Source: a virus
Reading direction: 5' to 3' (one strand)
DNA length: 64,000 nt
Virus record (IMG/VR): IMGVR_UViG_3300026488_000001
Coordinates: 1-64,000 of that record
Below, in pieces: positions 8,328-53,313 of the stretch (position 1 is its first letter; each line of letters opens with the position of its first letter). The notes below the pieces were generated by a model. That model was not told the DNA's origin and searched no databases. It saw only the letters and a program-made list of their open reading frames with translations. Both the position numbers and the translations under genes were made by a program.

Positions 8328-8774
8328 TCAAACTTTTAAATCATCTTTTATTTGATCTCTCCAATTGAGAATGCAATTTATATTCTTATCATTTAGACAT
8401 TTTAACAACTTCATCATCTTAGTCTTAACGATGTTAATAACTTCGTTATCACTCCTAACTGGTTCAATTGGATATTCAGATTTCCAGTAAAGAATTTCCT
8501 CTCTAATGTTTTCTTCAATCTTATCTAAATCATACCAATCATACAATTTACCATAAGAGATATTAGAACTACTCCTCTTAAGCTTTCTCAAAATATCTTT
8601 AGCCCAAACTGTAATATCCTTGATGTGTTTTCTCCTATCGTCATCTTTCTCAAAAAGGTACAACTTAACCATATGGCTTAATATCTGATCCCATAAACCT
8701 TGAGTTTGCTTTTTAATCTGATTAGCTTCTTCTAACTGGTCTAATAAATCTAACAACTCTCTTATTAGTTCCAT
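8328..8774 (-). CDS. DUF29-like protein carrying the shared N-terminal leader
   Basis: True start likely 8774 (GGAGGTG RBS; MELIRELLDLLDQLEE); ILSHMVKL and helical DUF29-like pattern. Confidence 0.55.
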   Translation of the reverse strand: MELIRELLDLLDQLEEANQIKKQTQGLWDQILSHMVKLYLFEKDDDRRKHIKDITVWAKDILRKLKRSSSNISYGKLYDWYDLDKIEENIREEILYWKSEYPIEPVRSDNEVINIVKTKMMKLLKCLNDKNINCILNWRDQIKDDLKV

Positions 8775-8796
8775 CTTCACCTCCTTCCAATAGTTA

Positions 8797-9657
8797 TTAC
8801 AAATCCACCAACTTAGACAACAGACTTTTAAACCCATACTTATTAAACAACTTAGTAGCTAACATCAAATCTTTCTTAGCAAAGTCCAACTGGATATCAA
8901 TATCAGTTAAATCAACATATCTAAAATCAATCAACTTTAAATTCCTTTCCACTATATCAAGATTATCCAATATCTTCTTAGCCCAAGATTCTTTCTTTTG
9001 CTTAACTAAAATCTCCAAGTTGGGAACTTCAGGTTCTAAGTTTAGCTTAAACATCTCCTTAACAACTTGAGTAGCCCTCCTATCACCTATTCCTTTAACC
9101 CCAGGAATATTATCTGAACTATCACCCATTAAAGATTTCTTTAAAGCTAGGTATTTAGGATGATAACCATATTTATCTATAAAGTTTTGTTCAGATTCGT
9201 AATACTCTCCTTTCATAGGTCTGTGGATTTTAACACTCCATTGTAACAATTGAAGGTAGTCTTCATCATCAGTATGAACTGTTGACTTATTCTGATAATG
9301 TTTTACAGCTAACCAATAAATAACATCATCAGCTTCTTGTTCTGGAATTTGAACCATAGCTACACCTAAAACAGGTAATATTTCTTTAAGAATTTTTTGA
9401 GTAGTTGAAAATTGTTGTCTAAACTCGTCATCATATTTTTCCTTAACTTTGTAGGTTTCTAATAATTGTTTCCTTCTCTTAGAGTGACCTCCGTCAAAGA
9501 CTACTACTATATTAGATAAGTTTCCAATAGAGAAAAGAGTTCTAAGGAAGATATAAGCTCCTCCTGTAAAAATGTTATTGTGAGTTAATCCTTGTCCTTT
9601 GTGAATAGAACGATGCATAAGATAATTACCATCTATAAAATGGTAGGTTTCACTCAT
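8797..9657 (-). CDS. 5'-3' exonuclease / flap endonuclease (T4 RNase H-like)
   Basis: IDGNYL, VVFDG, EADD, DEDYLQ, GDSSDNIPGVKGIG. Confidence 0.92.
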   Translation of the reverse strand: MSETYHFIDGNYLMHRSIHKGQGLTHNNIFTGGAYIFLRTLFSIGNLSNIVVVFDGGHSKRRKQLLETYKVKEKYDDEFRQQFSTTQKILKEILPVLGVAMVQIPEQEADDVIYWLAVKHYQNKSTVHTDDEDYLQLLQWSVKIHRPMKGEYYESEQNFIDKYGYHPKYLALKKSLMGDSSDNIPGVKGIGDRRATQVVKEMFKLNLEPEVPNLEILVKQKKESWAKKILDNLDIVERNLKLIDFRYVDLTDIDIQLDFAKKDLMLATKLFNKYGFKSLLSKLVDL

Positions 9658-9669
9658 TAAAATAACCTC

Positions 9670-9936
9670 CTACTCATTATAGTTAAAAATCTCTTCATCA
9701 AAAGCAAAAACAGGTAAAAACACAACAAGCACTATTGCCAATACAATAACCCAACCATTATTTTCAATATCTTCATCATTAACAATGAAATAACTTAATA
9801 AAAGCACCATAAATACCATAAGAAGAATAGCATGAACAACACCATAAATCTTTCCGATAAAGAATAAACAAACCCAATAAGATATAAGTGCAAAAAACCT
9901 AACAAACCAAACAACAAAGTTATGAAATAGATTCAT
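9670..9936 (-). CDS. Small membrane protein
   Basis: Three hydrophobic stretches. Confidence 0.6.
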   Translation of the reverse strand: MNLFHNFVVWFVRFFALISYWVCLFFIGKIYGVVHAILLMVFMVLLLSYFIVNDEDIENNGWVIVLAIVLVVFLPVFAFDEEIFNYNE

Positions 9937-10604
9937 CTTCTACCTCCATATTTCAAATATTCTTCTTTTAATAAATTGTAAGCAGTTTCAAAATTAACTT
10001 CTTCAAGATTCTTCATTAACTCTGTCATTACCTCATTATCTTCTTTACCGTTCCAAATTTTTTGATATTTACCTTCCTTATAACCAAAATCTTTCCTCAA
10101 CTTATTTAAAGCATTCTTAAAGAAATACATCTTAAATAACTCTTCCTCACTCATAAAAGCTCTAACCATTTTGCAATAAGGTTTCCATATAATAGAAATG
10201 TAAATAGAATCTGGTGAAAACTCGGATGCTTCAGTAAAGAAAAGAAAGTTTCTATATAACTTCATTATGGCTTGAGGAGTTTTTTCAACAGGATCAGTTT
10301 GGAAAGCCCAATCTATCCTTGTTACCAAATCTTCAAAACTCATATTTATCTTTTCTGCATATTGAATCATATAAGACAAAAGAAAATGGAGTATATCAAC
10401 CAATTCAACCTTAACATTATTAATATTTGGATTATTCTTTTTCCACCAAGCCCAATTTAAAGAATCCATCAGTTCAGCAAACTCTTGATTAATAGCTATA
10501 ACCCAATCTATTAAATTCCTATTTTGCTTCCAATTAGGGTCAATAGTCTTATTAAGATTGTCTTGAAGAATAATAGCATCTTGAATGATTTTTCTTAATT
10601 CCAT
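9933..10604 (-). CDS. Dimeric all-alpha dUTPase
   Basis: QEFAELMDS, WAWWK, VELVDILHF, KNALNKLR, YKEGKYQK, EDNE. Confidence 0.9.
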   Translation of the reverse strand: MELRKIIQDAIILQDNLNKTIDPNWKQNRNLIDWVIAINQEFAELMDSLNWAWWKKNNPNINNVKVELVDILHFLLSYMIQYAEKINMSFEDLVTRIDWAFQTDPVEKTPQAIMKLYRNFLFFTEASEFSPDSIYISIIWKPYCKMVRAFMSEEELFKMYFFKNALNKLRKDFGYKEGKYQKIWNGKEDNEVMTELMKNLEEVNFETAYNLLKEEYLKYGGRR

Positions 10605-10997
10605 TTACTCCTCCTTCTCTATATACTTTTCAATAAAGTTATTTACCAAATCATCTAATTTAGAAACTAAAACATTCCTTTCTTCATCAGTCAAAGAAAG
10701 AAGTGAGACAAGGAAAGGATAATAATCAACAGGATATATTTTTGCTTTTCCAAAAACATTAGTAAGTATCTCACCAGTTTTATCTTCTCGAATAATTAGG
10801 AAAAATCCGTCATAAATAACTTCATCTCCATTTTCATTTCTCACTACCACTCCTTTTTCTTTATCCCATCTAGCCCGACGATCTCTTCTCAATTTCTTAC
10901 CTTCTAATTCAAATTCACCTTCTTCCAATACTTTTCCATTTTCAATAATACCCCAACAACACCCTCTTTCAGATACTCCTATGTGAATTTCCTTCAT
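10605..10997 (-). CDS. Hypothetical protein
   Basis: ORF; start at 10997 after GGAGG. Confidence 0.65.
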   Translation of the reverse strand: MKEIHIGVSERGCCWGIIENGKVLEEGEFELEGKKLRRDRRARWDKEKGVVVRNENGDEVIYDGFFLIIREDKTGEILTNVFGKAKIYPVDYYPFLVSLLSLTDEERNVLVSKLDDLVNNFIEKYIEKEE

Positions 10998-10998
10998 C

Positions 10999-11193: not shown

Positions 11194-11270
11194 ATCGACC
11201 TCCTAGCAAATAACGGTTTAAGAATTTTTGAAACCAAACTGTGTAAATAGAACTTTTCTATAATACTCAT
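11190..11270 (-). CDS. Unannotated 26-aa peptide
   Basis: AGGAGGT RBS, ATG, MSIIEKFYLHSLVSKILKPLFARRSI; stop overlaps next start (ATGA). Confidence 0.5.
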   Translation of the reverse strand: MSIIEKFYLHSLVSKILKPLFARRSI

Positions 11271-11294
11271 AGCTTACCTCCTGATTTAGATTTA

Positions 11295-12735: not shown

Positions 12736-12745
12736 AATAACCTCT

Positions 12746-36916: not shown

Positions 36917-37321
36917 ATGCTAAACCAACTAATCAATAAACTAAAAACCTTACCTCCTAAAGAGAAGTCTATATTAAAGAGATTAATTGAAAAGTTCCAA
37001 AATGACCCCCAATCCTTACTCCAATTGTATGCTGAACTTGAAGGTTATAAAGAAGTACCAGTAGATATAATAACATTTATAGAACACCCTAAATATTTAG
37101 GCCTTTCTTTAGGGGGTAAGATATACCCAGTATGGAAAGAAGCTCTAAAAACAATTTTCCCTAACCCATTCTACTCTCCTTATTATGAGTGCATCTACAC
37201 TGGAGCAATAGGGGTTGGGAAATGTCTTGGAAATCAACAACTTATAGAAGTTTATATGAATGAAGAAGATATAAAGAAATATGGATTAGAAGAGTTCATA
37301 ATAGAGGAAAGCAATGAGTAA
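36917..37321 (+). CDS. terL: Terminase large subunit N-extein (102 aa) fused to a 32-aa N-intein fragment (from 37223)
   Basis: VPVDIITFIEHPKYLG; half Walker A TGAIGVGK followed by CLGNQQLIEV. Confidence 0.88.
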   Translation: MLNQLINKLKTLPPKEKSILKRLIEKFQNDPQSLLQLYAELEGYKEVPVDIITFIEHPKYLGLSLGGKIYPVWKEALKTIFPNPFYSPYYECIYTGAIGVGKCLGNQQLIEVYMNEEDIKKYGLEEFIIEESNE

Positions 37322-40327: not shown

Positions 40328-41803
40328 ATGATGGGATTGCTTTCAAAAATATTAAGTGGACTCGGTTTAGACTTTTATCCTGAGCTTAACGAACAAGTTA
40401 ATACTACTTCTTACCAACCTAAACAAGACCAAGTTAAATTTGATAAGTCAGATTTTAGGATTGTATCAGAACTTGTATCTAAGTATCTTGAAGTAACAAA
40501 GAACTTTCAAGGATTTTACAAGGAAATAGAAAGAGTAAGGGAAACTTACATAGCAGAAGTAATACTAGATCAATTTACTTTTGATGCTTTAACTCCAGAT
40601 GTTTCATCTGACAATATAATAGATATAGTTCCTAACATTGACTCTAAGGAAATAGAAAAAGGTTTAGAAGATTTCCAAGAAAAGATAAATGTAGACAGAT
40701 TAGTTCAAGATATAACTCCTGATTTAATAGCTTTTGGAACATACACAGTTAAACCTGTTATTGAAGAAGGAGAAGGATTAGTAGAAATAAAGGATGAAGA
40801 ATTACCTTATGAAGTAATTCCGTTCTATAAGGGAACTGAAATTGAATTTTATCTGAAACTTAATGAGAAAGGACAACCTGAATTTTATCAACCTTATGAG
40901 TATGTAACATTTTTTGTTAATGCAAGAAGAATAAGGGTAAGGATTGATAAATCCATAATAAGAAACTTACCACAAGATAAACTTGATAAGATTCCTACTT
41001 TCCTTAAGGTAGGAACTCCTCTCTTTACAACAGGTGTTATAAAGAAGATTAAAGAACTTGACTTACTTGAAAAGCTAATACCTGCATCTAAAATTCAAAT
41101 GCTTTCTAAAGGCAATGTAGTAGGCGTATATGTTCCACCTTCAATGTCTCCAGATGAAGCTCTAAGTTTTGCTAAGCAACTTGAAAGGAAACTCAACTCT
41201 TTAGGTATATCAGTAGATAAAGATTTAGATCAACTCTCAATAACTGAAATACTTAAAGGTGCTGGTAGAATAAAAGTAATACCTGTTACATCAGAAAAAG
41301 GTCAAGTTACTAAACTCGATTATAAACCAGAAGAACCAAATGATTTATTAAATTCTATACAAGATTTAAGACAAGTAATCCTTACTTCCGTTGGGATACC
41401 TCCTGAACTCATATTCAATACTGGTAATAATACTAAAGGAGAAACTCTTAAGAGATATAGCAGGTATTTAAGGAAACTGAAATATATTCAAAAAGCTATT
41501 GTAGATGGATTGAGAGAATTAGTAATGTTACATCTTATCAATAAAGGTATTTCAGTTACTCCAGAAGACTTTTCAGTTAGATTTGCTAATACTCTCGTAA
41601 ACATAGATGATTTAGACAAAATTGAGTTTCAAGTTACAGTCGCTCAAAACCTTTCTGATTTGAATAGATTTGTTCAAGATTTAGGACAAGATGATAATCT
41701 TTCTCAGTATGTCGATTATGAAGGTTTTGCTGAATTCTTAAACCAAGAACTTACAAAGATTGGACTCGACAAGGTGATAAAGTTACCAGGAGAAGAACAA
41801 TGA
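40328..41803 (+). CDS. Portal protein (T4 gp20-like)
   Basis: Position after terL, 491 aa, ILTSVGIPPELI, RYSRYLRKLKYIQ. Confidence 0.8.
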   Translation: MMGLLSKILSGLGLDFYPELNEQVNTTSYQPKQDQVKFDKSDFRIVSELVSKYLEVTKNFQGFYKEIERVRETYIAEVILDQFTFDALTPDVSSDNIIDIVPNIDSKEIEKGLEDFQEKINVDRLVQDITPDLIAFGTYTVKPVIEEGEGLVEIKDEELPYEVIPFYKGTEIEFYLKLNEKGQPEFYQPYEYVTFFVNARRIRVRIDKSIIRNLPQDKLDKIPTFLKVGTPLFTTGVIKKIKELDLLEKLIPASKIQMLSKGNVVGVYVPPSMSPDEALSFAKQLERKLNSLGISVDKDLDQLSITEILKGAGRIKVIPVTSEKGQVTKLDYKPEEPNDLLNSIQDLRQVILTSVGIPPELIFNTGNNTKGETLKRYSRYLRKLKYIQKAIVDGLRELVMLHLINKGISVTPEDFSVRFANTLVNIDDLDKIEFQVTVAQNLSDLNRFVQDLGQDDNLSQYVDYEGFAEFLNQELTKIGLDKVIKLPGEEQ

Positions 41804-42393
41804 AACTTATAAAAGAACTTAATCAACTTTTAGAAGACCTATCAAGTTTAGGTGTTATTCCTAATAATCCATTAGCTTTAGTAACTTATCAAGATTTTGA
41901 CTTTGACCTAGATGAATTAGAACAGAGATTCCAACAAAGACTTCAATCTTTAGGTTATGACGACATACAAGTTCAAATATTGAACTTTGATCCTGATACA
42001 GGTGATTTACTAATCAAGTTTATTAATCCTGAAAACCAAGAAGATGTAGAAGTGTTATTTACAGTAACAGAAGATGGAATACTCGCTGTAGTAGTAAGTG
42101 AAGACGACGAACATATTGAAGTAAACCTTTCTAACTTGAATGTTCCATTAGTAGAATATGTTTTACAGGTTGGTATTGATTGGGACGAACCTTTAACTTG
42201 GTTAACAAAGTCAGTATTAACAGCACTCCTTGAAGCAGGTAGATTGGTAGAATCTTATTCTCCTGTCAGAGGTAAAAGAAAAGAGAAACTTCCTCTTATA
42301 AGGAAAGGGACTTCTGAACAAGCTAAAGTTAATCTAAAAAGGATTAAGGTTAAGAAATGTGTTAGAAAAGGTAAGTTAAGGAAAAGGAAGTAA
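41800..42393 (+). CDS. Head-associated hypothetical protein with shared leader
   Basis: MKLIKELNQLLE; acidic body and basic tail. Confidence 0.6.
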   Translation: MKLIKELNQLLEDLSSLGVIPNNPLALVTYQDFDFDLDELEQRFQQRLQSLGYDDIQVQILNFDPDTGDLLIKFINPENQEDVEVLFTVTEDGILAVVVSEDDEHIEVNLSNLNVPLVEYVLQVGIDWDEPLTWLTKSVLTALLEAGRLVESYSPVRGKRKEKLPLIRKGTSEQAKVNLKRIKVKKCVRKGKLRKRK

Positions 42394-42419
42394 CTTGATT
42401 ACAACAAGAGGTTACAGAT

Positions 42420-43190
42420 GTGAAATTTGTAACTGTCAAAGAAAGTGATTCAATAGAACTTATTCCTCTTGCCGATTTGCACTTAGGTTCAGAACTTACC
42501 AACCTAAGAAGAATTCATCAAATAATTGAACACATAAGAGAAAACCCAAAAGCAAGAGTAGTTATATTAGGAGACCTACTTGAATCAGCTATTATAGGAA
42601 GTAAAGGAAATCCTTATAAAGCTAAATCAATAGATGAAGAAGTAAGATTAGCAGTTTCGGTTCTTAAACCTATTAAGGATAAGATAATAGGAATAATAAG
42701 TGGAAATCATAGTAACCGTATCTCCAAAACGATAGGGCTTGATATTTTAGCTTTACTATCAAGAAAGTTAGGAATAGATCGGTATTATTCTCCAGATTTC
42801 TTAGTTTTAAGAATTTCTCTACCTAAAACAGCTTGGTATGTAGTATTACATCACGGAGTAGGTGGAGGAAGGTTAAAAGGAGGAAAGATAAATAACTTGC
42901 ACAGATTTGGTAACATTTTTCCTAATGCAGACATAATTCTAATAGGACATACTCACGATTTCATAATGACTGTTGATAAGAAATACATAATAGACAAGAA
43001 ACACAATTCAATAAAAACTCACAAAACTTTTTACATTAATGTTCCTTCTTTAGCTATGGAATACGGTGGGTATGCTTCTTCTTATGCATATCCTCCAAGT
43101 GTAACAGGAACGATCAAGATTTATCTTCCTAATATTCCAAATTCTAAGAAAAAGACCTTTGAACTAAAGGTTGAACACATATTTGTCTAA
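42420..43190 (+). CDS. Calcineurin-like metallophosphoesterase
   Basis: DLHLG, GDLLE, GNH, HHG, GHTH. Confidence 0.9.
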   Translation: MKFVTVKESDSIELIPLADLHLGSELTNLRRIHQIIEHIRENPKARVVILGDLLESAIIGSKGNPYKAKSIDEEVRLAVSVLKPIKDKIIGIISGNHSNRISKTIGLDILALLSRKLGIDRYYSPDFLVLRISLPKTAWYVVLHHGVGGGRLKGGKINNLHRFGNIFPNADIILIGHTHDFIMTVDKKYIIDKKHNSIKTHKTFYINVPSLAMEYGGYASSYAYPPSVTGTIKIYLPNIPNSKKKTFELKVEHIFV

Positions 43191-43210
43191 AGTATTAAAG
43201 GAGGATTCCA

Positions 43211-43468
43211 ATGGTACTTAAACCAAAACAAGGAAAAGTTATTATAAACTACAAAGGTAAGCAAATAGAACTTCCCACTAAAGCAACCAAAGAAATCCTT
43301 TCTATCCCTGCTGTAAAAACCTTTCTTTCTAAAGGTATTGTCGAGCTTGTAGAAGAAAAAGAAGATAAGCAAGAACAACCTAAAGTAACCAAAGAAGAGT
43401 TTAAATCAGAAGAAAAACCTAAGCAAGAGAATAAATCAAAAAGAGGTAGATCATCAAAGAAGAAATAA
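43211..43468 (+). CDS. Hypothetical protein
   Basis: GGAGG RBS; Lys/Glu-rich tail. Confidence 0.7.
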   Translation: MVLKPKQGKVIINYKGKQIELPTKATKEILSIPAVKTFLSKGIVELVEEKEDKQEQPKVTKEEFKSEEKPKQENKSKRGRSSKKK

Positions 43469-43480
43469 GAGGATTAAACT

Positions 43481-44074
43481 ATGACTCTACAAGAACTCTT
43501 TGACTTGATTCTTATTAGAACAGGTGAATTTCTTATAGGTGCTGATAATGTAGAACTCGATTTACCTAAATTTGAAGCTCTTGTTGATAAATCTCTTAAA
43601 ACCTATTCCAAGTATAAACCTAAAAGAGAGAAACTCTTCATTAATCTTGAGAACTACAAGTATACTTTTACAGATGAAATACCTAACTACATATCAGATG
43701 TAACACCTTGTTATTCTACTGTATTCAATCCACTATTACAGATAGCTAGTCAATCTGGTAATATTCCATTTATAGAGTGGGAGTATAGGAAACCTACTCT
43801 TTATGCTAACTTTAATGGAAAAGCTGAAGTTGAAGCTTGGTTTGATTGGGAAATCAAAACTGATGATTCGGGTAATAAGTATATAGAACTTGAAGATGAA
43901 CTTTTCATTGATTTAATAACGGCAGAGTTTTTGTTAGGGTTAGCAAGAAGTAGGAGAGCTTTTTCAATTCAAGAGCTTCCTATTACAAGTGATTCAGAAA
44001 TACTTGCATCTGAAGGACAAAAACTTTATGAAGATACCATTGAAACTTTAAGACAAACTTCTATTTTAATATAA
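43481..44074 (+). CDS. Neck / head-tail adaptor protein (gp13-like)
   Basis: Position; LGLARSRRAF...DSEILASEG resembles the gp13 C-terminus. Confidence 0.55.
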   Translation: MTLQELFDLILIRTGEFLIGADNVELDLPKFEALVDKSLKTYSKYKPKREKLFINLENYKYTFTDEIPNYISDVTPCYSTVFNPLLQIASQSGNIPFIEWEYRKPTLYANFNGKAEVEAWFDWEIKTDDSGNKYIELEDELFIDLITAEFLLGLARSRRAFSIQELPITSDSEILASEGQKLYEDTIETLRQTSILI

Positions 44075-44099
44075 TTAAATAATAAAAAGGAGGAAGATT

Positions 44100-44462
44100 A
44101 TGAATCTTATAAACGAATTAAATCAAATTTTGGAAACTATAATTAATGTTAAAAATACTGATGGTATTAATTTAAAGAAAGGTGATAAATTTTATTACAG
44201 GAAAGATGATGTAGTTCTTACCGTACAAGAGATAAAAGATATTTCTGGGACAAAATATGCAGTAGTTAAATCTGAAAATGGAGAAGTTTTGAAACTCCCA
44301 GTAGCTATGTTTAATTCAAGTTATGATTTTCTTGTTCCTTATGAACAATGGAAAAAAGAGTGGGAAAGAAAGGTTAGAGCTTTTGTAAATTCTATGAAAG
44401 GTAAAATGAATGATAATCAACTTAAGGAGTTAGAAAGGCAATTATTAAGTAGAATAAAATAA
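44100..44462 (+). CDS. Hypothetical protein with shared leader
   Basis: MNLINELNQILE. Confidence 0.7.
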   Translation: MNLINELNQILETIINVKNTDGINLKKGDKFYYRKDDVVLTVQEIKDISGTKYAVVKSENGEVLKLPVAMFNSSYDFLVPYEQWKKEWERKVRAFVNSMKGKMNDNQLKELERQLLSRIK

Positions 44463-44554
44463 GTATGGGTGAAATTATAAATTTATTGGGTCTCTTATTT
44501 TAATTAATTCGAAGGTTTTGTATTTTTGTTGTACTTACTATAAGGAGTAAGGTA

Positions 44555-45076
44555 ATGAGATTGATAGATGAACTTGTAGAGTTGTTTCGTTTATACGAAG
44601 AGTTAGATGATAAGAAATTGGATAAAGCAGTTAAGTGGTTTATAAGGGAAATTCTTTTCTACTTGATACCTGATTGGAAAGAAAAAGACCCTAACTTAGC
44701 TATATTCCCGAAAAAAGGAAGTAAGTATTACGAAGCTTATGTTACTATCAAGTTTACTAAAACAAGAGGTATTTGGTTAGAATTCTCAAGTAATCCATCT
44801 ATTCAATATAGAATTCTTAAAATTTGGGTAACAGCAATTGATATGGGAGATAAAATAGACTTTTCTATTTCAGTCTTTCCAGTTGAAAGAAACATACAGA
44901 AGTATATTGATGTAAATATACCAAGAAAACTATCTTTTGACATCTATGTACCAAAAGAAGAACTTGAAAAAGGAGTTTCTTCCCTTAAGTATATTGAGCC
45001 AGTTTTAAAGGAAGTAAGAGAAACAATAAAGGAGATATATGAAGGTTTGGAAAAGTTAGTTAAAAGGAAAAAGTAA
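44555..45076 (+). CDS. Hypothetical protein with shared leader
   Basis: MRLIDELVELFRLYEE. Confidence 0.7.
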   Translation: MRLIDELVELFRLYEELDDKKLDKAVKWFIREILFYLIPDWKEKDPNLAIFPKKGSKYYEAYVTIKFTKTRGIWLEFSSNPSIQYRILKIWVTAIDMGDKIDFSISVFPVERNIQKYIDVNIPRKLSFDIYVPKEELEKGVSSLKYIEPVLKEVRETIKEIYEGLEKLVKRKK

Positions 45077-45651
45077 TGGGACTTATACAAGAGGTTAATC
45101 AATTGTTGGAGAAAGTTAATAAACCAGATCCAAGACAGATAGTAGAAGTTCCGAAAAGGTTAAGAAGAAAGAATAGAGTAACATTAAAACAGATTTATTT
45201 AAATTTCCCTTACTCCGTTTATAAGTACGATCCTATTCCTCCTCAACCTGTAAAGATTAGAAGAATAGAACTAACTGAAGATGAATTAGTAATGACTGTT
45301 CACGCTTATGTTAAATCTGTTTCAAGACCAGGAAAGTATCATAGTTGTGTTTTACAGTTGGCAAGACCGAATACTAATATAGATTGGAATTGGGATTTAC
45401 CAGTAGCAGTAAGATGTTCTTGTGAGTCTTTTAGATATTTCCTAGCTTATGCTCTTTACTCTCATGGAGCTTTATTTGGTAGACCATCTCTCTGGAATAA
45501 AGTACCTGCTAAAATACGAAATCCTATGAACATCCCTCAAGTATGTTCCCATTTGTGCTTATTAACTGAATATTTAATCAAACATAAAATAATAAAAGGT
45601 AAGGTAATTTGGAATACCCTAAAATATAGGGATGGTGGTAGGAAAAAGTAA
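45076..45651 (+). CDS. SWIM zinc-finger protein with shared leader
   Basis: CSCESF...CSH; MGLIQEVNQLLE. Confidence 0.7.
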   Translation: MGLIQEVNQLLEKVNKPDPRQIVEVPKRLRRKNRVTLKQIYLNFPYSVYKYDPIPPQPVKIRRIELTEDELVMTVHAYVKSVSRPGKYHSCVLQLARPNTNIDWNWDLPVAVRCSCESFRYFLAYALYSHGALFGRPSLWNKVPAKIRNPMNIPQVCSHLCLLTEYLIKHKIIKGKVIWNTLKYRDGGRKK

Positions 45652-47054
45652 TGTTTAAAAACAAACTTTATCAAGATAAAGATTGGCTTTACCACCAATA
45701 TTGGGAATTAGGTAAATCTACCAGACAGATAGCGAAAGAATTTGGTTATGGTATTAATACAATAAGAAGGTGGATGGACAAATTTGGAATTCCAAGAAGA
45801 AGTGTTGATGAGGGAATTCAGCAAAGATTTAAAGCACCTTACAGGAATAGAGATTGGTTGTATAATGAGTTAATTATAAAAGGCAAATCAAGAATTCAAG
45901 TAGCAAGAGAGTTAGGAGTTAATAGAGAGACTATTGATAAATGGGCAAAGAAGTTTGAAATAGGTTATCCAGAGAAACTTTACCAGAATAAAGAATGGTT
46001 AGAAGAACAATATGTGAAGTTAGGAAAATCAACTATTCAGATAGCAGAAGAATTAGGAGTTTCTGAAACTGTTATATTAAAGTGGTTAAAGAGATTTGAA
46101 ATACCGATAAGAAGATGGCATAAGAAAGGAAAGTATACTAACAAAGAATGGCTTTATAATGAGTATTATGTTAAAGGAAAATCTATAAAACAAATTGCTG
46201 AAGAATGTAATGTAAAACCCTCTTCAGTTAGATATTGGTTTGATAGGTTTGGTTTTGTATCAAGAGAAAAGTTTAAACCCGTTATTGGAAAAGAGTGGTT
46301 ATACCAAGAATATGTAATTAGAAAGAAGTCAATGAAAGAAATTGCAAGAGAGTTAGGAATTCATTATAAAATTGTTTCTAATTTATTAAAACAGTACGAT
46401 ATTCCTATAAGGAATGTAAATGAAGCCGTTTCTTCTGTTTCCAACTTTTATCACAAACTTTCAGATTATTTTAGACAAGTTCTAGATGGGTCTTTAACTA
46501 AACCAAAATCTTTGAACTCTAATTCTTGTTATCAACATACTGATAAACACAAGAATTATATAGAATGGCTAAGGCAACAGTTTATTGATGAAAGTTTGGA
46601 GTGTGGTAAAATTTATGAAAAGGAATATAAAAAATTAAATGCTAAAGCATATTGTTTCTCTACAAGAAGATATCCTTGCTTAACAGAACAATATTATAGA
46701 TGGTATTCAGATAGTAAAAAGATAATACCAGATGATTTAAAACTTACTCCAACAGTTGTTCTTCATTGGTATATTGGTGATGGGAGTCTAATTAAACCAT
46801 CAAAAGGTAAACCTTTCATCCATTTCGCTACCAACTGTTTTACTTTTGAAGAGGTTAACTTTTTGGTAGATCAACTTAATGAACTTGGACTAAAAGCATA
46901 TTTAAGAACTGGAACTGAATACAGAACAAAAAGGAAATTTCCTTATATAGTTTTATCAGTAAAATCAACTTTGGATTTCTTTGATTTTATAGGTTCTTGT
47001 CCAGAACCAATTAAACAAGACTATAATTATAAATGGGAATTAATTAACCTATAA
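45651..47054 (+). CDS. Five tandem HTH repeats fused to a LAGLIDADG_2-type endonuclease domain
   Basis: Repeats Y.NKEWLY..Y...GKS..QIA.ELG....I..W...F.IP; KIIPDDL, HWYIGDGS, ATNCFT. Confidence 0.8.
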   Translation: MFKNKLYQDKDWLYHQYWELGKSTRQIAKEFGYGINTIRRWMDKFGIPRRSVDEGIQQRFKAPYRNRDWLYNELIIKGKSRIQVARELGVNRETIDKWAKKFEIGYPEKLYQNKEWLEEQYVKLGKSTIQIAEELGVSETVILKWLKRFEIPIRRWHKKGKYTNKEWLYNEYYVKGKSIKQIAEECNVKPSSVRYWFDRFGFVSREKFKPVIGKEWLYQEYVIRKKSMKEIARELGIHYKIVSNLLKQYDIPIRNVNEAVSSVSNFYHKLSDYFRQVLDGSLTKPKSLNSNSCYQHTDKHKNYIEWLRQQFIDESLECGKIYEKEYKKLNAKAYCFSTRRYPCLTEQYYRWYSDSKKIIPDDLKLTPTVVLHWYIGDGSLIKPSKGKPFIHFATNCFTFEEVNFLVDQLNELGLKAYLRTGTEYRTKRKFPYIVLSVKSTLDFFDFIGSCPEPIKQDYNYKWELINL

Positions 47055-47089
47055 ATTAAATTTAGAAGAATACACTAAAGGGCAATCCA

Positions 47090-48025
47090 ATGATAAAGTT
47101 TAGAGACCCAAACGACAAAATATTATTCCTTTCTGAAGCAGGCTTGTTAAACCAATATGAACCTTTTGATGATGTAGAAAAACTCTCACAGGAAGCTATC
47201 GAAGAAATCTGGCAAGGTATTATTAAACGTCGTAAACCTTTAAAGAAGAGATTAAAAGACAGGAAGCGTTCTAAGATTCAAAAACAGAATTGGAAGAAAT
47301 ACAAAACAAAATATCTTTTGGCTTTAAGAAAGTGGCATCGTTCTGTAAGTGGTAAAAGGTTTCATAGAGCTTTAGGTAGGTTTTTAGCTTTAAGACTAAA
47401 CAGAGAATCTTATAACCTTGATGTTAATGAAAGGTTTGATTTTCTCAAGTTACTATCCAGTCTTAAAACTCATTGGTATATAGAGGGAGTTTATTACAAA
47501 CCACTCTTAGAAGAAGTAGAATATGAACTCTTTACTGAAGAAGTATTACCACTAATAGAAGAGATTGAAAAGAAAGTTTTAATTGAGAATAAACTTGATA
47601 AAGACGATATTGAGTTTCTATTTGGTATCTTTTACGAATCTAAAGAAAGATTTGTATTAGCGGTTCAAGAAATTGTAAACAGAATAAAACAAGGTAGGTC
47701 ACTTTCCAAGAGTTGTATAAGTGATGTTATCAAGTATGTAACTGATAACAAAGAAAAACTAAGAGAAGCAATTATAGGTTGGTTAGAGGAAGAAACTTTT
47801 GGAGGTTATCATTCAGTATTGCTTTCTCAAAGTTTAAGGAAAGTAATTTATGATCCAAATGAGAAATATTTTGTTAAGAAACAAGGTGACACATTTATCT
47901 ATAAGCAAGGAGATTCAGAAGTAGTTTTTAAACTAAAATACTTACTTCCTGTAAAACACCTTTTAGCTTACTTTGAAGGTGAAATCAATAATCTTTCTGA
48001 TAAAGTTTATGAAATAGTTGATTAA
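47090..48025 (+). CDS. Putative prohead core protein
   Basis: Upstream of protease; basic helix RRKPLKKRLKDRKRSK. Confidence 0.4.
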   Translation: MIKFRDPNDKILFLSEAGLLNQYEPFDDVEKLSQEAIEEIWQGIIKRRKPLKKRLKDRKRSKIQKQNWKKYKTKYLLALRKWHRSVSGKRFHRALGRFLALRLNRESYNLDVNERFDFLKLLSSLKTHWYIEGVYYKPLLEEVEYELFTEEVLPLIEEIEKKVLIENKLDKDDIEFLFGIFYESKERFVLAVQEIVNRIKQGRSLSKSCISDVIKYVTDNKEKLREAIIGWLEEETFGGYHSVLLSQSLRKVIYDPNEKYFVKKQGDTFIYKQGDSEVVFKLKYLLPVKHLLAYFEGEINNLSDKVYEIVD

Positions 48026-48035
48026 GAGGTTTAAA

Positions 48036-49421
48036 ATGAAAGAACAAGTAATTGATCTTATAGAACCACAAATTCAATTTACAGTAGAAGAATCAAGTGA
48101 AGTAGATGGTATCCACATCTTAGGTAAGGTAAAAGGTCAATTCTTTGTTCCTGACGGTTACTCCAGAAATAATCGTTTTTATCCTCGTAAACTTTGGGAA
48201 AAGGTAATATCCAATCCTGATATTCAAAAGAGACTTAAAGAAAGACGAATGTTTGGAACTATCGGTCACGATACTCCTATAAATGATAATACAATAGCAG
48301 AAGGTAAAATTTCCCACATAGTAACTAACCTTTATATCGATGAACAAGGTAGAGGTATAGGAGAAGCTCTTATCCTTAATACCCCTGCTGGTAGAGTTCT
48401 TAATACTTTGTTAAGGGCAGGAGCTAAACTTTATGTTTCATCTAGGGCTTTTGGAGAATATGAAGGTAAAGATCCTACTGGTAAAGTTCCAGCTTTAAAT
48501 CCTGACAAGTATGAACTAATAGGTTTTGATTTTGTCTATGATCCGGGATTTCTTCAAGCCAATCCTAAACTTGTAGAATCTATCAGAAAAGATTTGAAGC
48601 AATGTATAGGAGACATATGTTCTTTTGTTGAAAATCAAGATAAATCCAATGAAGTAAAGGAGGATAATAGTATGGCTATGGAACAAGTTTTGGAACAACT
48701 TACCAAAGAAAAAGTAGAACTTGAAAAAGAACTTGATAAGGTTCTTAAAGAGAATGAAGAACTCAAGAAACAAATAGAAGAGTTCAAAAAGAAAGAGGAA
48801 GAGTGGAAAACTGTTTCTGAATCTCTTTCTAAAGTAGAAGAGGAACTTAAATCAGCTAAAGAAGAACTTGCTAAATATGAGAAGCTCGGAAAACCTGAAG
48901 AAATTGAAGAAACTATTAAGAAAGCTAAAGAGCTTCTCGAACAATACAAGGAAATAGGTTCTCCTGAAGAAATTAAGGAAAGTATTGAAGATGCTAAAAA
49001 AGTTCTTCAAGAATATCTTGAAATTGGAAAACCTGAAGAAATAAGAGAAACACTTGAGAATGCTAAAAATATTCTTAAGAAGGTTGCAGTTTTTAAAGAG
49101 GAAGTAGGAGAACTTGATGAAGTAAAAGAGTTTCTTGAGTCTATGAAAGATGTATTTGCTAAGATGGTAGAAGAAAAAAGACAAGCTAAGGTTGAAGAAC
49201 TCTCTAAAGAATTTGGTGTAGAAAAAGAAGTTGTAGAGAGACTTGCTTCCAAAATGGAATTTGATGAAGTAAAAGAAGTCCTTTCTAAAATGGTAGAATC
49301 TGCTAAGTATGTAAACAAGTATAAAGTATCTTCTAAAGTTGAAGAAGATAAGAAAGACAATTCAACTTCTAAATTCCTCAAACCAAGAACTATAAGACTT
49401 GCTGAATCCTTCCTAAAGTAA
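48036..49421 (+). CDS. Prohead protease (T4 gp21-like) fused to a coiled-coil scaffold
   Basis: NNRFYP, GTIGH, ISH, ILNTPAG, VSSRAFG, FDFVYDPG; E/K coiled coil with 23-aa repeats. Confidence 0.9.
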   Translation: MKEQVIDLIEPQIQFTVEESSEVDGIHILGKVKGQFFVPDGYSRNNRFYPRKLWEKVISNPDIQKRLKERRMFGTIGHDTPINDNTIAEGKISHIVTNLYIDEQGRGIGEALILNTPAGRVLNTLLRAGAKLYVSSRAFGEYEGKDPTGKVPALNPDKYELIGFDFVYDPGFLQANPKLVESIRKDLKQCIGDICSFVENQDKSNEVKEDNSMAMEQVLEQLTKEKVELEKELDKVLKENEELKKQIEEFKKKEEEWKTVSESLSKVEEELKSAKEELAKYEKLGKPEEIEETIKKAKELLEQYKEIGSPEEIKESIEDAKKVLQEYLEIGKPEEIRETLENAKNILKKVAVFKEEVGELDEVKEFLESMKDVFAKMVEEKRQAKVEELSKEFGVEKEVVERLASKMEFDEVKEVLSKMVESAKYVNKYKVSSKVEEDKKDNSTSKFLKPRTIRLAESFLK

Positions 49422-49431
49422 GGAGTAAAAT

Positions 49432-49665
49432 ATGATTAAGGAACTTAATAAGTTACTTGAGGAATTTCAAAGAAAAGATGAATATGCTATGAGAGTTACT
49501 GAAATTCCCAAGTTCTTTGAAAAGATTAAGAAACAACTTGATAAGGTAACTGATTTACCTGAAGACTTGTTTAAAATTGATATGATTCAGAAAGATATAG
49601 ATAAAGTGAAACAAGAACTTGATAAGATTTGGCAGAAGTTTAAATCAGGCAAGTATGAAAGATAA
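49432..49665 (+). CDS. Hypothetical protein with shared leader
   Basis: MIKELNKLLEE. Confidence 0.7.
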   Translation: MIKELNKLLEEFQRKDEYAMRVTEIPKFFEKIKKQLDKVTDLPEDLFKIDMIQKDIDKVKQELDKIWQKFKSGKYER

Positions 49666-49687
49666 ATCAATACTATTTTGTTTTTCC

Positions 49688-49715
49688 TAACTAACCTGCA
49701 CTATCAGGTTAGTTA
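49688..49715 (+). other. Hairpin upstream of the capsid gene
   Basis: TAACTAACCTG/CAGGTTAGTTA. Confidence 0.5.
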
Positions 49716-49779
49716 ACCTAGAAATCTCAATAAAATCTAAATCTACAACATTATTAAGAAATTAAGGAGGTAGTTAATA

Positions 49780-51165
49780 ATGAGCGAACTCGTTATTGAA
49801 AAGAAACTCAGAGAAGTAGAATACCAAGCTGAAGATTATCTCAAAAGGTATCGTGAACAAGTAGAAACTCTTGAATCTGCAACTTTCCTTGGAAAAGTAA
49901 GGGGAGTTCAGGCTTGGGACGTAGTTCAGCTCGGTAAGCAACTTGAAAAGTGGGAAATGCTTGAATCTATGGTTAAAGAAGATGGTGGACTTGCATCTCT
50001 TGGTGCACTTCCCAAAGTAGCTTTTGATGTTATCACAGTTGCTTACGGAAACTCTGTAATTCCTTTCATAGCTTCTGTTCAAAACATTGAAGAAGAAAGA
50101 GGAAATGTTTACTTCAAAGTAATTAAAAGACAAGATACAGGAAATACTATTATTGATCCTAGAACTGGAGCTGTTCTTCCAAGTGGACTTGCTTCCAATG
50201 TAGTTTCTGATAAAGTAGTTGCTACTGGAGATGGTTCTACAACTACTTTCAATGTTACTCTTGATTCTATCCCTGTAAGACCTGAAACTTTTGAAGTTAA
50301 AGCAGGTTCTGCTTATGGTAAGGACGATGGAAAAGGAACAATTCTTGGTGTAGGTGTATGGGGAACGATTGACTACTCCACAGGAGCTGTGGAACTCAAC
50401 TTTGCTTCTGCACCTGCTTCTGGTGAAGAAATTAAGGTTGGATATCAAGTAGATATAGAAGGTGCTAATGATCTTCCTTCTATTGGTTCTGTATTTGAAT
50501 CTATACCTGTTACAGCAAGGATTTATGCTCTTAAGGGAGTAGTAGGACTTCTCCAATCTTATGCCCTCAGGCAAAGGTTTGGAATTGTAGCTGAGGATGA
50601 ACTTGCTAAAGACCTTGTAGTTGCCATTAACAATGAGATTGGTGGTGACCTTATCAGGAAGATGAATGCTAATCCTGCTGGTGGGACAATTACTTGGGAT
50701 AAAACTCCTCCTTCTGGAGTAAGCTACTTTGAACATAAGCAAACAATTAAAGACAGCCTTGCTGATCTTGAAGGAAAGATTGTTAGCAATGCAGGTAGGG
50801 GAGTTATTAATGTTATCATAGCAGGTGCTAAAGTTGCTGCTATTCTTTCTACACTACCTGGATTTGAAAAGGTAGCTGATGGTAAAGCTATGGGTGCTCA
50901 TGTATTTGGAACTCTTGATGGTGTAACTGTTATCAGGGTTAATGATGCTAATGCTCTTCCTGGTAATGTAGCACTCGGTATTTACAACCCTGATAATCCG
51001 TTTGAGGGTGCTGCTGTTTATGCTCCTTATATGCCTCTTACAACAACTGAGCTTATTCCACTTTCACCTAATCCATTGACAAATCAGAAAGCTGCTGCTG
51101 TATGGGCAGGTGTAGAAGTTCTTGTTCCTCAGTTTGTAGGTAAACTTAATGTTCAAAATGCTTAA
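49780..51165 (+). CDS. Major capsid protein (gp23-like)
   Basis: Position after scaffold; ASVQNI, VTARIYALK, VYAPYMPL. Confidence 0.9.
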   Translation: MSELVIEKKLREVEYQAEDYLKRYREQVETLESATFLGKVRGVQAWDVVQLGKQLEKWEMLESMVKEDGGLASLGALPKVAFDVITVAYGNSVIPFIASVQNIEEERGNVYFKVIKRQDTGNTIIDPRTGAVLPSGLASNVVSDKVVATGDGSTTTFNVTLDSIPVRPETFEVKAGSAYGKDDGKGTILGVGVWGTIDYSTGAVELNFASAPASGEEIKVGYQVDIEGANDLPSIGSVFESIPVTARIYALKGVVGLLQSYALRQRFGIVAEDELAKDLVVAINNEIGGDLIRKMNANPAGGTITWDKTPPSGVSYFEHKQTIKDSLADLEGKIVSNAGRGVINVIIAGAKVAAILSTLPGFEKVADGKAMGAHVFGTLDGVTVIRVNDANALPGNVALGIYNPDNPFEGAAVYAPYMPLTTTELIPLSPNPLTNQKAAAVWAGVEVLVPQFVGKLNVQNA

Positions 51166-51195
51166 TATAACATAGTAAAGTATTTGCTATGTTCG

Positions 51196-51251
51196 GTAGG
51201 AGTCCTCTGGCCAAGGTAATAACCTTGTTATGCTGGGGGACTCCTACTTTT
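51196..51251 (+). terminator. Long hairpin / terminator after the capsid gene
   Basis: GTAGGAGTCCTCTGGC/GCTGGGGGACTCCTAC stem, inner CAAGGT/ACCTTG, then TTTT. Confidence 0.6.
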
Positions 51252-51280
51252 AATAAGAAAACAATAGGAGGATTAACATA

Positions 51281-51970
51281 ATGAGTCTTATACAAGAGAT
51301 AGTTCAACTTGCAGAAGAAGCAGGAATAGAACTTCCAACTAAAACTTGCATATGTCCTAATTGCGGTTATGAAATGGAAACTCCTATGGGGATTCCTTGT
51401 TCTAACTATGATTGTCCTAAATGTGGAACTCCTATGACAAGGAAAATTGGGGAAGGTTATTCTCAATCTGTAAGAGATAAGTTTATTGAGTGGGTTAAGA
51501 AATATTTTAGTAATCCGAATGGATATTATTCTTTGACTAATTATGTTTTAGATATTTTAAGTAAGTGTAAAGATGAAGTAGACTCTCTTCTTGACGATTT
51601 TGGGACATCTGAAAAAGAATGGGAAGATAATTGGAAAGAAATAGCTGATGCATTAATGAATTATGAATTTGATCCTTATTCAGACCAATGGACAGACTGT
51701 GTTCATAAGTTAGCTAAAAAGTATGGTTATTCGGAATCTAAGAATGAATCTAAAACAGTAAAAGCAAAACTTGTATTTAACGGTTCAGAAGAACCTACAT
51801 TTTCTCTTATAGATGAACAAGGTAATGAAATTTTTAAAGGAATAGGAAAAGTAGATACTATTGCCAAACTTCTCCAACTTAATTCCAATCCTACTGCTGA
51901 AGATGCTGTTGTTTGTGCTATGGAAAAAGGAGAGTGTGAAGTTGAAGTAGAATTGGAGAAAGAGGGATAG
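51281..51970 (+). CDS. Multi-domain protein with shared leader and Zn ribbon
   Basis: MSLIQEIVQLAEE; CICPNCG...C..CPKCG. Confidence 0.7.
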   Translation: MSLIQEIVQLAEEAGIELPTKTCICPNCGYEMETPMGIPCSNYDCPKCGTPMTRKIGEGYSQSVRDKFIEWVKKYFSNPNGYYSLTNYVLDILSKCKDEVDSLLDDFGTSEKEWEDNWKEIADALMNYEFDPYSDQWTDCVHKLAKKYGYSESKNESKTVKAKLVFNGSEEPTFSLIDEQGNEIFKGIGKVDTIAKLLQLNSNPTAEDAVVCAMEKGECEVEVELEKEG

Positions 51971-51972
51971 GG

Positions 51973-52173
51973 ATGGTTACTATTGATTATGAACTGTGTA
52001 TTAATTGTTTTCTTTGTATGAAAGAATGTCCAATGTTTTGTTTTTCTGAAGTAGATGGTAAGTTAGTTTTAACTGAATCAGGTAAGAATACTTGTATTGG
52101 ATGTGGAAATTGTATTCAAAGCTGTCCTACTCTTGCTTTAGATTGGGACTATAATCATATCAGGTATTCCTGA
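51973..52173 (+). CDS. 2x[4Fe-4S] ferredoxin
   Basis: CINCFLCMKECP and CIGCGNCIQSCP. Confidence 0.92.
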   Translation: MVTIDYELCINCFLCMKECPMFCFSEVDGKLVLTESGKNTCIGCGNCIQSCPTLALDWDYNHIRYS

Positions 52174-52190
52174 TAACAAAGAGGAACAAA

Positions 52191-52490
52191 ATGGCTTTGA
52201 TTGATAGTTTAAAGAAAACACTTGAACAATTGGTAATAAATAATGATCCTTACTCCTTTGATAGAGCTTTGTTAGATGCTCTTCCTCCATATAAAATAAC
52301 CAAAGATATTCCCCCTCTACCTAATTCAAAAAACATAAAACTTGCTCTAAGAATCAAAGGAGGATTTCTGGCTTTAACTAAAGACAATGAACTTATTATT
52401 TATCACCAGAATGGTTCTTCAGGTTCAGTTAAGATTATTTTTGATAGAAAGGATATTAAGTATTTAAAGAAGTTTTTAAAGGAGGTTTAG
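52191..52490 (+). CDS. Hypothetical protein with shared leader
   Basis: MALIDSLKKTLE. Confidence 0.7.
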   Translation: MALIDSLKKTLEQLVINNDPYSFDRALLDALPPYKITKDIPPLPNSKNIKLALRIKGGFLALTKDNELIIYHQNGSSGSVKIIFDRKDIKYLKKFLKEV

Positions 52491-52493
52491 ATA

Positions 52494-52814
52494 ATGGCTC
52501 TTATAGATGAGCTTAAACTTACAATAGAGAGTTGTAAATCCAAGAAAGAGTTTAAAGAAGCTCTTACTAAAGAACTTTATGATAAGATTGGAATAATACT
52601 TAGGGAATCAGCTTACTTTGATTTTGATCCTATTGATGAAGAACAAGGTACATATATGATTTCTATTAATGTAGCAGGCAAAGAAATAATTCAGATTAAT
52701 ACTAAGAAAGATGGAGAAAATATAGTTTATGATTCTTATGAGATTGATGAAGGTGGTCTTAAAGCAATGATTGAATTTATTGAGAACAAAGCTAAAGAAC
52801 TTTCTAAGGAGTAA
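52494..52814 (+). CDS. Hypothetical protein with shared leader
   Basis: MALIDELKLTIE. Confidence 0.7.
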   Translation: MALIDELKLTIESCKSKKEFKEALTKELYDKIGIILRESAYFDFDPIDEEQGTYMISINVAGKEIIQINTKKDGENIVYDSYEIDEGGLKAMIEFIENKAKELSKE

Positions 52815-52818
52815 GGTT

Positions 52819-53313
52819 ATGAGATTGATAGATGAACTTTATTCTCTTCTCTATCAACTTGATGAGGAACAATGGATAGACAAAGTTAAGCCCAAGTGGC
52901 ATCCTCCTGAAGGGTTATTTACCAAAGACCCTGAAACAATAGCTAAAACAGTTGCAAAAGCATCTAAAGATTATAAACAAGCAGTAGCAAGAGTTAATTT
53001 CTTCTATAATAGGTATGGTTGTTCTGGTGATAGAAAAGGAGATGAGATTTGTAAGAAAAGGGAAAAGGTTTTACAACTTCTTAGAAAACTTTTTAAGGTA
53101 AAAGAAGAGGAAGCAACTAAAGTAATCATTACTTATGATGGAGAAACTTTTGATGTAGTTTATCCGAGTGGAAATGTAGAATCTTTCCAAGATGAAGTTT
53201 CTTTCCTTCAGTTTATTAGGCAAAAGAATATTAAAGGTAAAAACGGTGTAACAGACCAGCAACTTGTAGATTGGGTTAAGGAATCTGGTTATATAGAAGC
53301 ATTTTTGGGTTAG
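52819..53313 (+). CDS. DUF3175-like protein with shared leader
   Basis: Start 52819 MRLIDELYSLLYQLDEE; PPEGLFTKDPETIA...VNFFYNR. Confidence 0.6.
   Translation: MRLIDELYSLLYQLDEEQWIDKVKPKWHPPEGLFTKDPETIAKTVAKASKDYKQAVARVNFFYNRYGCSGDRKGDEICKKREKVLQLLRKLFKVKEEEATKVIITYDGETFDVVYPSGNVESFQDEVSFLQFIRQKNIKGKNGVTDQQLVDWVKESGYIEAFLG

Follow-up and report, generated by a model that had tools for sequence, protein, structure and literature searches.

The leader and the genes that carry it

The window analysed here is the first 64 kb (positions 1 to 64,000; G+C content ~31%) of the 88,755-bp contig IMGVR_UViG_3300026488_000001 of IMG/VR, an uncultured metagenomic assembly. The contig ends overlap by 77 bp, so the phage genome is probably complete; hydrothermal-vent metagenomes contain DNA near-identical to it, and its gene content, as read from sequence, is that of a contractile-tailed phage with a T4-type head. 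Our subject is a short N-terminal leader found on a set of otherwise unrelated proteins encoded mostly among the head genes, which an earlier reading of this DNA (the original prediction) had proposed to target its bearers to the capsid. Our analysis confirms the leader itself and supports that proposal in part.

The ten N-termini that the original prediction listed, those of p8774 (on the minus strand), p41800, p44100, p44555, p45076, p49432, p51281, p52191, p52494 and p52819 (each gene named by its start coordinate; Table 1), are all present in the sequence. Nine of these starts, each an ATG, match M-x-L-I-x-[ES]-[LIV], and across all six frames of the 64 kb this motif with its preceding Met occurs solely at those nine gene starts. 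The consensus first proposed was M-x-L-I-x-E-L-x-x-L-L-E; the nine stand in exact register with Glu or Ser at position 6 and Leu, Ile or Val at position 7, giving M-x-L-I-x-E-[LIV]-x-x-L-L-E as the fuller consensus, while three lack Glu12 and p49432 has the motif minus one residue. The looser member that had been suggested, p24808, proves to have the motif plus one N-terminal residue and falls in the leader set by de novo N-terminal clustering. Leaders range in length from 11 to 17 aa, with 12 residues as the usual length, 16-17 in three genes and 11 in p49432.

Each leader ATG lies 5-9 nt downstream of an AGGAGG-like ribosome site. For p8774 and p52819 the motif-bearing start is better supported than the longer start of the open reading frame (ORF), and the orthologues begin at the same Met. 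A position-specific scoring matrix (PSSM) built from the nine exact-match leaders gives 20.8-27.4 bits at the nine starts, with the next-best N-terminus at 3.1, and reaches at least 12 bits at 1 of 26,012 internal positions. Beyond the window, at contig position 78109, there is a weak extra candidate.

The original prediction had placed nine leaders in the head module and had named, as the finding that would speak against it, a motif equally common on non-virion genes; what we find is that nine genes out of the 18 lying from 40328 to 53400 (portal to neck) have the leader, whereas a single one of 100 genes does so outside this stretch (Fisher p = 5e-8).

Table 1. Leader genes, head-module genes and examples of tagged genes in a cultured relative
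Feature	Coordinates	Strand	Leader	Remarks
p8774, 148 aa	8328..8774	-	MELIRELLDLLDQLEE	leader at nt 8727-8774; PSSM 20.8
p24808, loose member, 120 aa	24808..25170	+	MTRKVDELRKVLE	basic C-terminal tail
large terminase	38245-40203			
portal, 491 aa	40328..41803	+	none	34% identity, E = 5e-86, to annotated portal of RHph_TM30
p41800, 197 aa	41800..42393	+	MKLIKELNQLLE	leader at 41800-41835
p44100, 120 aa	44100..44462	+	MNLINELNQILE	pI 9.2
p44555, 173 aa	44555..45076	+	MRLIDELVELFRLYEE	long-form leader
p45076, 191 aa	45076..45651	+	MGLIQEVNQLLE	pI 9.9; SWIM-like body (CxC...CxH)
gp280-like conserved head-module protein, 311 aa	47090..48025	+	none	homologue of RHph_TM30 gp280, 37% identity, E = 5e-35
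prohead protease, S77/gp21 family (about aa 1-200), with scaffold-like C-terminal domain	48036..49421	+		PF03420, phrog_207
p49432, 77 aa	49432..49665	+	MIKELNKLLEE	all charged helix; between protease and capsid genes
major capsid protein, gp23 family	49780..51165	+		PF07068, 54.3 bits, cutoff 24.4
p51281, 229 aa	51281..51970	+	MSLIQEIVQLAEE	pI 4.5; CxxC...CxxC zinc-ribbon-like segment after leader; orthologues exist
p52191, 99 aa	52191..52490	+	MALIDSLKKTLE	pI 9.6
p52494, 106 aa	52494..52814	+	MALIDELKLTIE	pI 4.6; orthologues exist
p52819, 164 aa	52819..53313	+	MRLIDELYSLLYQLDEE	long-form leader; body possibly DUF3175-like (lead only)
RHph_TM30 (NC_070966), examples of tagged genes	135143-135430, 138478-139122, 153180-153911, 197990-198307			MSKA/MSRA-type

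One could imagine that the peptide is conserved only incidentally, because each of these genes begins with a nucleic-acid signal (a translational operator or enhancer, say, or a site for recombination). The motif does begin at the initiation codon, and translational operators such as the T4 RegA sites overlap start codons. Against such a signal, the leaders use CTA, CTT and TTG for Leu and GAA and GAG for Glu, and the DNA upstream of the leader genes has nothing in common beyond the ribosome site; in a 237-kb relative discussed below (G004), where the leader draws on every Leu codon and on the two serine codon families alike, third codon positions hold about 0-0.4 bit. Given this synonymous variation and the lack of upstream likeness, conservation of the leader is at the protein level. 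With neither third positions nor flanks conserved, the codon analysis largely refutes a nucleic-acid signal, whose probability we put close to nil.

In the peptide, L3, I4, L7, L10 and L11 would form a hydrophobic face. All nine exact-register leaders have Ile4, with Leu, Ile or Val as residue 7. In a non-redundant set of 19 leaders drawn from four genomes, residue 4 is Ile 14 times, Val three times and Ser twice, and residue 7 is Leu 13 times, Ile four times and Val twice. Towards the end of the leader, six members have [L/I/T]-x-E over residues 10-12 and p49432 has it over residues 9-11; in the three long-form leaders L/Y-x-E falls at positions 14-17. A hydrophobic-x-Glu end of this kind matches in sequence the cleavage pattern, (L/I)-x-Glu, of gp21, the T4 prohead protease.

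Unrelated bodies behind a modular leader

With the first 16 residues removed, none of the 66 pairs among the twelve candidate proteins shows body similarity (best E 0.01), which bears out the claim that the downstream parts are unrelated. The proteins span 77-229 aa and isoelectric points (pI) of 4.5-9.9; several have Lys/Arg-rich C-terminal tails and others are acidic, and p41800, whose start overlaps the portal stop codon, combines an acidic body with such a tail. Searches of Pfam and PHROGs with the ten leader proteins gave no family above cutoff except phrog_18980 (unknown function) for p45076, a match that begins at residue 13.

The domain labels attached earlier to these bodies fared unevenly, the majority going unrecovered by Pfam. 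That of SWIM for p45076 is supported by the CxC...CxH pattern and by a match at E = 1e-9 to a SWIM-annotated protein of Vibrio phage Va2, whose N-terminus is quite different and leaderless. The zinc-ribbon label has a CxxC...CxxC segment and E = 1.3e-3 behind it but stays below the Pfam cutoff. For the DUF3175-like label of p52819 there is a sub-threshold protein-atlas hit (feature score 0.78, TM 0.66), to be read as a lead only, and family searches gave no support to the DUF29-like label. The atlas look-up of p41800 returned nothing. AlphaFold2 models of p45076 and p41800 are unusably poor, with a mean predicted local distance difference test score (pLDDT) of 46 and 50; both draw the leader as a helix, at low confidence.

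We take the leader to be modular, attached to unrelated bodies. A different origin for such a set would be a decayed paralogue family, in which a small gene was duplicated and the bodies diverged while the N-terminal helix was kept for an internal role, for example self-association. Some members are indeed adjacent (p52191, p52494 and p52819; p44100, p44555 and p45076), and tandem duplication is common in phage accessory regions. Yet body similarity is absent not only from the 66 pairs here but also from all 565 pairs of similarly tagged proteins in five loci of more distant phages; protein lengths vary as given above, the bodies belong to different known families whose profiles start after the leader, and one body, that of p45076, has a homologue with another N-terminus. 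With no body similarity whatever, we reject common descent of the bodies, and consider it very improbable.

A prohead protease fused to a scaffold-like domain

The gp21-like protease that the original prediction had recognised is confirmed by family searches. It matches PF03420 (Peptidase_S77) at 35.4 bits against a cutoff of 27 and a PHROG 'head maturation protease' profile at E = 3e-32, and its catalytic His and Ser (GTIGH, VSSR) line up with those of T4 gp21. The C-terminal 250 residues are charged helical repeats, with three tandem copies (48700-49421) of the form G-[KS]-P-E-E-I-x-E-[ST]-[IL]-x-x-A-K-x-[LI]-L-x-x-Y-x-E-I, and the repeat YxxLGxPEEIxEAL is conserved in 30 protease-scaffold homologues (alignment A3). 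A sequence search of the PDB with the protease returned only designed helical repeats, matching this C-terminal domain. The annotation 'prohead core scaffolding and protease' found in relatives fits the same fusion architecture, and the database holds 157 fusion-type homologues of similar length.

This S77 protease is the presumed leader-removing enzyme, and the leader may dock on the repeats of its scaffold-like domain. When residues 1-45 of p45076 (alignment A2) were paired with the protease-scaffold (alignment A3) in a complex prediction, the score was 0.00, a value that counts neither way on binding. In the alignment of the major capsid protein, encoded downstream, the motifs T-L-E|S and M-L-E|S are conserved within the N-terminal 63 residues; a sequence search with this protein against the PDB gave no match.

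Close relatives and compact head modules

Three IMG/VR contigs encode capsid proteins 79-87% identical to that of the window. These close relatives retain the leader on orthologues at 50-90% identity, with variants such as MKLVEKLKRKLEE, MALVHELKMLLER and MNLSQEVLRLLEK. The p8774 orthologues in G001 and G003 have an identical leader, p41800 is kept in three relatives, and the p44555 orthologue in loci L001 and L003 begins MGRLIDNLNLLLEE. The sets are not the same: there are extra tagged genes that the present phage does not have, and some of the window's tagged genes are missing from the relatives. A scan of the genome and its relatives with a leader profile, which the original prediction had put forward as a check, recovers all nine N-termini of the window and the leader in the three relatives, where the window PSSM reaches at least 10 bits at 9 of 318 N-termini against 11 of 65,873 internal positions, two of these 11 being mis-called starts. 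In G008, too, a leader gene stands at the p49432 position.

More distant, cultured relatives (Rhizobium phage RHph_TM30, E. coli phage IME392, Maribacter phage Molly and Vibrio phage Va2) have compact head modules made up of terminase, portal, gp280-like protein, protease-scaffold and capsid genes, without tagged genes among them. Since these modules do without them, the tagged genes are, on this comparison, accessory insertions.

The same comparison bears on whether the tagged proteins might be structural or scaffolding parts of the prohead core, like T4 gp67, gp68 and gp22, which would be cut and then expelled or retained as fragments and not injected, the leader still being removed by the protease. 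Their genes lie amid those for portal, protease and capsid, p49432 would fit well as a 77-aa charged helix encoded between protease and capsid, and T4 core proteins are likewise small and cut by gp21 (PMC5694885). Essential parts would, however, be conserved, while the tagged set differs among phages as close as the three contigs above and is missing from the compact modules; it also includes zinc-binding and globular bodies. We therefore regard a purely structural role as rather improbable.

A cousin leader in distant phages

Through an alignment of protease-scaffold homologues we gathered 69 IMG/VR loci, or 66 once the three close relatives are set aside, and clustered their N-termini de novo, locus by locus. 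Many loci with proteases 30-47% identical to that of the window have a shared leader of their own, the commonest being M-[SNTG]-[KR]-A-x-x-[LFIV]-[LI]-x-x-[LIF]-E-E (the MSKAxxLLxLxEE form), while L043 and L061 have forms closer to that of the window. At least three tagged genes occur in 12 of the 66 loci (3-26 genes per such locus), and a profile of this cousin leader hits 111 of the 1576 N-termini, whereas no more than 99 hits fall among 300,481 internal positions. Single-linkage clustering of N-termini is noisy, having lumped T4 homing-endonuclease N-termini with internal proteins (IPs), so that the cluster sizes are upper bounds; the PSSM counts are safer. Beyond position 13 the information content of the cousin leader collapses, which is how a discrete module that is cleaved off should look, and the domains recognised in cousin-tagged proteins all begin after the leader. 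The recognisable bodies are AAA ATPases, J-domain proteins, a zeta-toxin-like protein, a SprT-like protease and DUF5662.

The richest example is the 237-kb genome G004 (IMGVR_UViG_3300032053_000003; loci L096-L107), in which 59 of 409 genes, or 14% of ORFs, are tagged with MSKAxxLLxLxE. Tagging is concentrated around the protease and capsid genes: there, 39 of the 75 genes within 31 kb have the leader, against 20 of 334 elsewhere (p = 2e-19), and up to about ten small tagged genes follow one another without a break. Nine tagged genes were found in a complete 95.7-kb relative. Cultured RHph_TM30 has about 7-10 genes tagged in the MSKA/MSRA style, dispersed over its genome (Table 1).

How far could such a leader be understood with no reference to the capsid? 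It might be a docking or regulatory tag, for instance a degron or adaptor through which an AAA+ protease of host or phage would time turnover, or a handle gripped by a phage chaperone, with the clustering among head genes reflecting co-expression. The kinds of proteins that carry the cousin leader, among them AAA ATPases, J-domain proteins, the SprT-like protease and what may be a kinase of the zeta-toxin type, favor this, as do the 59 marked genes of G004 and the dispersal of the tagged genes in RHph_TM30. The basic MSKA form is reminiscent of N-terminal ClpX recognition signals. Unlike such degrons, the window's own leader is acidic and without a basic residue; moreover, it matches the processed N-termini of T4 head proteins and has the gp21-type hydrophobic-x-Glu end. 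Head genes are strongly enriched for the leader in two complete or near-complete genomes, and packaged enzymes have a precedent in T4 Alt (PMC9026906). Weighing these points, we judge a capsid-independent tag of turnover or docking unlikely.

Comparison with T4 and the proposed capsid targeting

In phage T4 a capsid-targeting sequence (CTS) is carried by IPI, IPII, IPIII, Alt and gp24 and removed by gp21 (Mullaney and Black 1996, as reviewed in PMC9026906, PMC5694885 and PMC3012670). T4's head proteins bear N-terminal propeptides of 10-20 residues that direct them to the core of the prohead and are cleaved after Glu by proteases of the gp21 family (PMC5694885). In IPIII the CTS residues that matter most are 4 and 7 for targeting and 8 and 10 for processing (PMC9026906), and the internal proteins of T-even phages are diverse, with the tag as their sole common part and with sets that vary (PMC3012670, PMC9026906).

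The N-termini in the T4 record are MELITELFDE for Alt, MAKINELLRE for gp24, MKTYQEFIAE for IPII and IPIII and MKTFKEF for IPI, and gp23 is cut at FLTE|A. The window's leader and those of Alt, gp24, IPII and IPIII have an I4/E6/L7 core in common, T4 itself having Tyr or Ile at position 4 and Phe or Leu at position 7, and p8774, which begins MELIREL, is identical to Alt at 6 of the first 7 residues. I4 and L7 stand at the two positions known to govern targeting in T4. The pattern M-x-x-[IYLV]-x-E-[LFIV]-[LFIV]-x-E, applied to 294 T4 ORFs, matches just IPII, IPIII, gp24 and Alt, all known gp21 substrates. The strict T4 consensus with its Glu10, M-x-x-[IY]-x-E-[FL]-[hydrophobic]-x-E, has no match in G000-G004, G008 or RHph_TM30; in the window's leader the terminal Glu comes two residues later.

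The likeness to T4 thus covers a short tag at Met1 of unrelated proteins, hydrophobic residues at 4 and 7, Glu6 and a hydrophobic-x-Glu end, together with an S77 protease, a gp23-type shell and a cargo set that varies among close relatives. The T4 tag differs in having 10 residues and Glu10, where 12 (or 16-17) residues and Glu12 are found here; gp21 and gp22 are separate proteins in T4, whereas here the protease is fused to the scaffold-like domain; and tagged genes are dispersed in T4, whereas here they cluster in the head module, the 89-kb genome having ten tagged genes in all. Of what the original prediction had supposed, namely a T4-like leader cut after Glu and loading a variable cargo, the core residues, the enrichment among head genes, the modularity and the relatives all speak in favor; its description of the leader as distinct was wrong, the leader being a two-residue-longer relative of that of T4.

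We therefore propose that the leader is a capsid-targeting propeptide of the T4 type in a lineage far from T4. Such targeting is the most economical and best-supported reading of the leader, and the full sequence of docking, removal by the S77 protease after Glu, retention in the head and injection seems to us reasonably probable. The amphipathic leader helix would dock the tagged protein on a prohead scaffolding core, which the protease-scaffold fusion would build beneath the gp23-type shell. Once activated, the S77 protease would cut after the terminal Glu of the leader, following the hydrophobic-x-Glu rule of gp21, and the mature protein, freed within the head, would remain with the DNA and enter the host at injection. 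The tagged set would then be a lineage-variable cargo of small proteins, several with basic tails that could bind DNA; in its variation among relatives it resembles the internal-protein sets of T-even phages (PMC3012670, PMC9026906). That the cargo might serve in anti-defence or takeover is pure inference, by analogy with T4 IPI and Alt.

Several observations weigh against this proposal. We found no virion proteomics, mass spectrometry or N-terminal sequencing in the literature for this phage or its relatives, those of phiM9 type included. The gene for p8774, the sole tagged protein outside the head module, sits among replication genes; the three members without Glu12 would have to be cut at residues 15-17; and the strict T4 consensus with Glu10 is not matched. 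The cousin leader, besides standing on AAA ATPases, J-domain proteins and a SprT-like protease, marks ~15% of the genes of a jumbo phage, and the set so tagged is larger and more enzyme-rich than any known CTS cargo. Finally, the tagged genes of RHph_TM30 are dispersed and not head-clustered, as is also true of the ip and alt genes of T4.

Other systems offer partial parallels. In the giant phages phiKZ, 201phi2-1 and SPN3US many proteins of the head interior, ejection proteins among them, are processed; a protease related to gp21 cleaves after Glu, and the N-terminal propeptides are thought to direct proteins into the prohead (PMC5694885, PMC7411985, PMC10052503); unlike the leader here, these propeptides are mostly 80-130 residues long, with an [S/A/G]-x-E motif and no shared short consensus. 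The Dar system of P1 loads anti-defence proteins into the head and injects them, DarB, Ulx and others by way of DarA/Hdf, but dedicated head proteins do the loading, and the titles and abstracts of the two papers describe no comparable shared cleavable N-terminal consensus (PMC9024508, PMC12810830). With the cargo-loading peptides of encapsulins, a short tag sends unrelated cargo inside a shell of HK97 fold. Encapsulin tags are usually C-terminal and uncleaved, and the shells are cellular nanocompartments without protease or DNA. The literature we searched holds no description of the window's leader outside T4-like and giant phages.

If the leader does act as in T4, sequence alone would tell which proteins travel in the head of a phage and are the first to be injected; in T4 such proteins include anti-restriction and host-takeover factors (IPI, Alt). 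Targeting by a short cleavable helix would then be an old feature shared by phages with gp21-type proteases and not a peculiarity of the T-even group, and the capsid-targeting tag would tolerate lineage-specific dialects. Dozens to hundreds of uncharacterised candidate effectors could be picked out in uncultured phages, with RHph_TM30 as a cultured test case. Short portable tags would also be useful for loading foreign proteins into phage heads, for which the T4 tag is the precedent.

A bolder version, which we put forward only tentatively, is that the window holds one lineage's form of a programmable cargo-loading system common to a large group of phages, most of them uncultured, whose heads are of the T4 type and which encode protease-scaffold fusions. 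Leader dialects specific to each lineage (xLIxELxxLLE here, MSKAxxLLxLxEE elsewhere) might load anything from a handful to ~60 different small proteins and enzymes, including AAA ATPases, J-domain proteins, proteases and kinases, into the capsid for co-injection, and the arsenal of injected effectors would then go far beyond that of T4.

Other features of the head module and genome

Several further genes of the head module and its surroundings deserve mention. The terminase region (36917-40203) contains three ORFs of 134, 324 and 652 aa, whereas in relative L002 the N-terminus MLDLFKEKLKTLP..., common to the window's terminase, heads one 622-aa ORF (L002:2330-4198), a difference that fits an insertion inside the terminase gene. 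In relative G003 (L003:10001-12678) the capsid gene ends after 318 codons, and the remainder (MMKQTVKDALADLEG...) lies on a 144-aa ORF ~1.3 kb away, with a 307-aa ORF in between. This suggests an intervening element, such as an intron or an inserted homing endonuclease. Flanked by a leader gene and the gp280-like gene, a gene at 45651-47054 in the window's head module encodes a 467-aa protein with multiple helix-turn-helix domains and a LAGLIDADG_2 endonuclease domain; at this spot relatives have other or shorter versions (L001:4617-5543, L003:6326-7585).

Amid the leader genes of the head module there is also a 66-aa 2x[4Fe-4S] ferredoxin (51973-52173; Fer4 families, E about 1e-11), which is kept in relatives (L001:11880-12071). 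A metallophosphoesterase or DNA-repair-exonuclease-like gene (42420-43190; phrog_7339, E = 1e-37) lies in the head module beside the portal gene, and in L001 and L003 its position differs, being upstream of the portal. Finally, a near-identical N-terminus, SWKDIFPQENRYFETENGILYC, is found on three genes, at 2869-3699 (minus strand) and 31011-31781 (plus strand) of the window and at 84367-84993 (minus strand) of the contig, and for this reason the three are probably paralogous enzymes.

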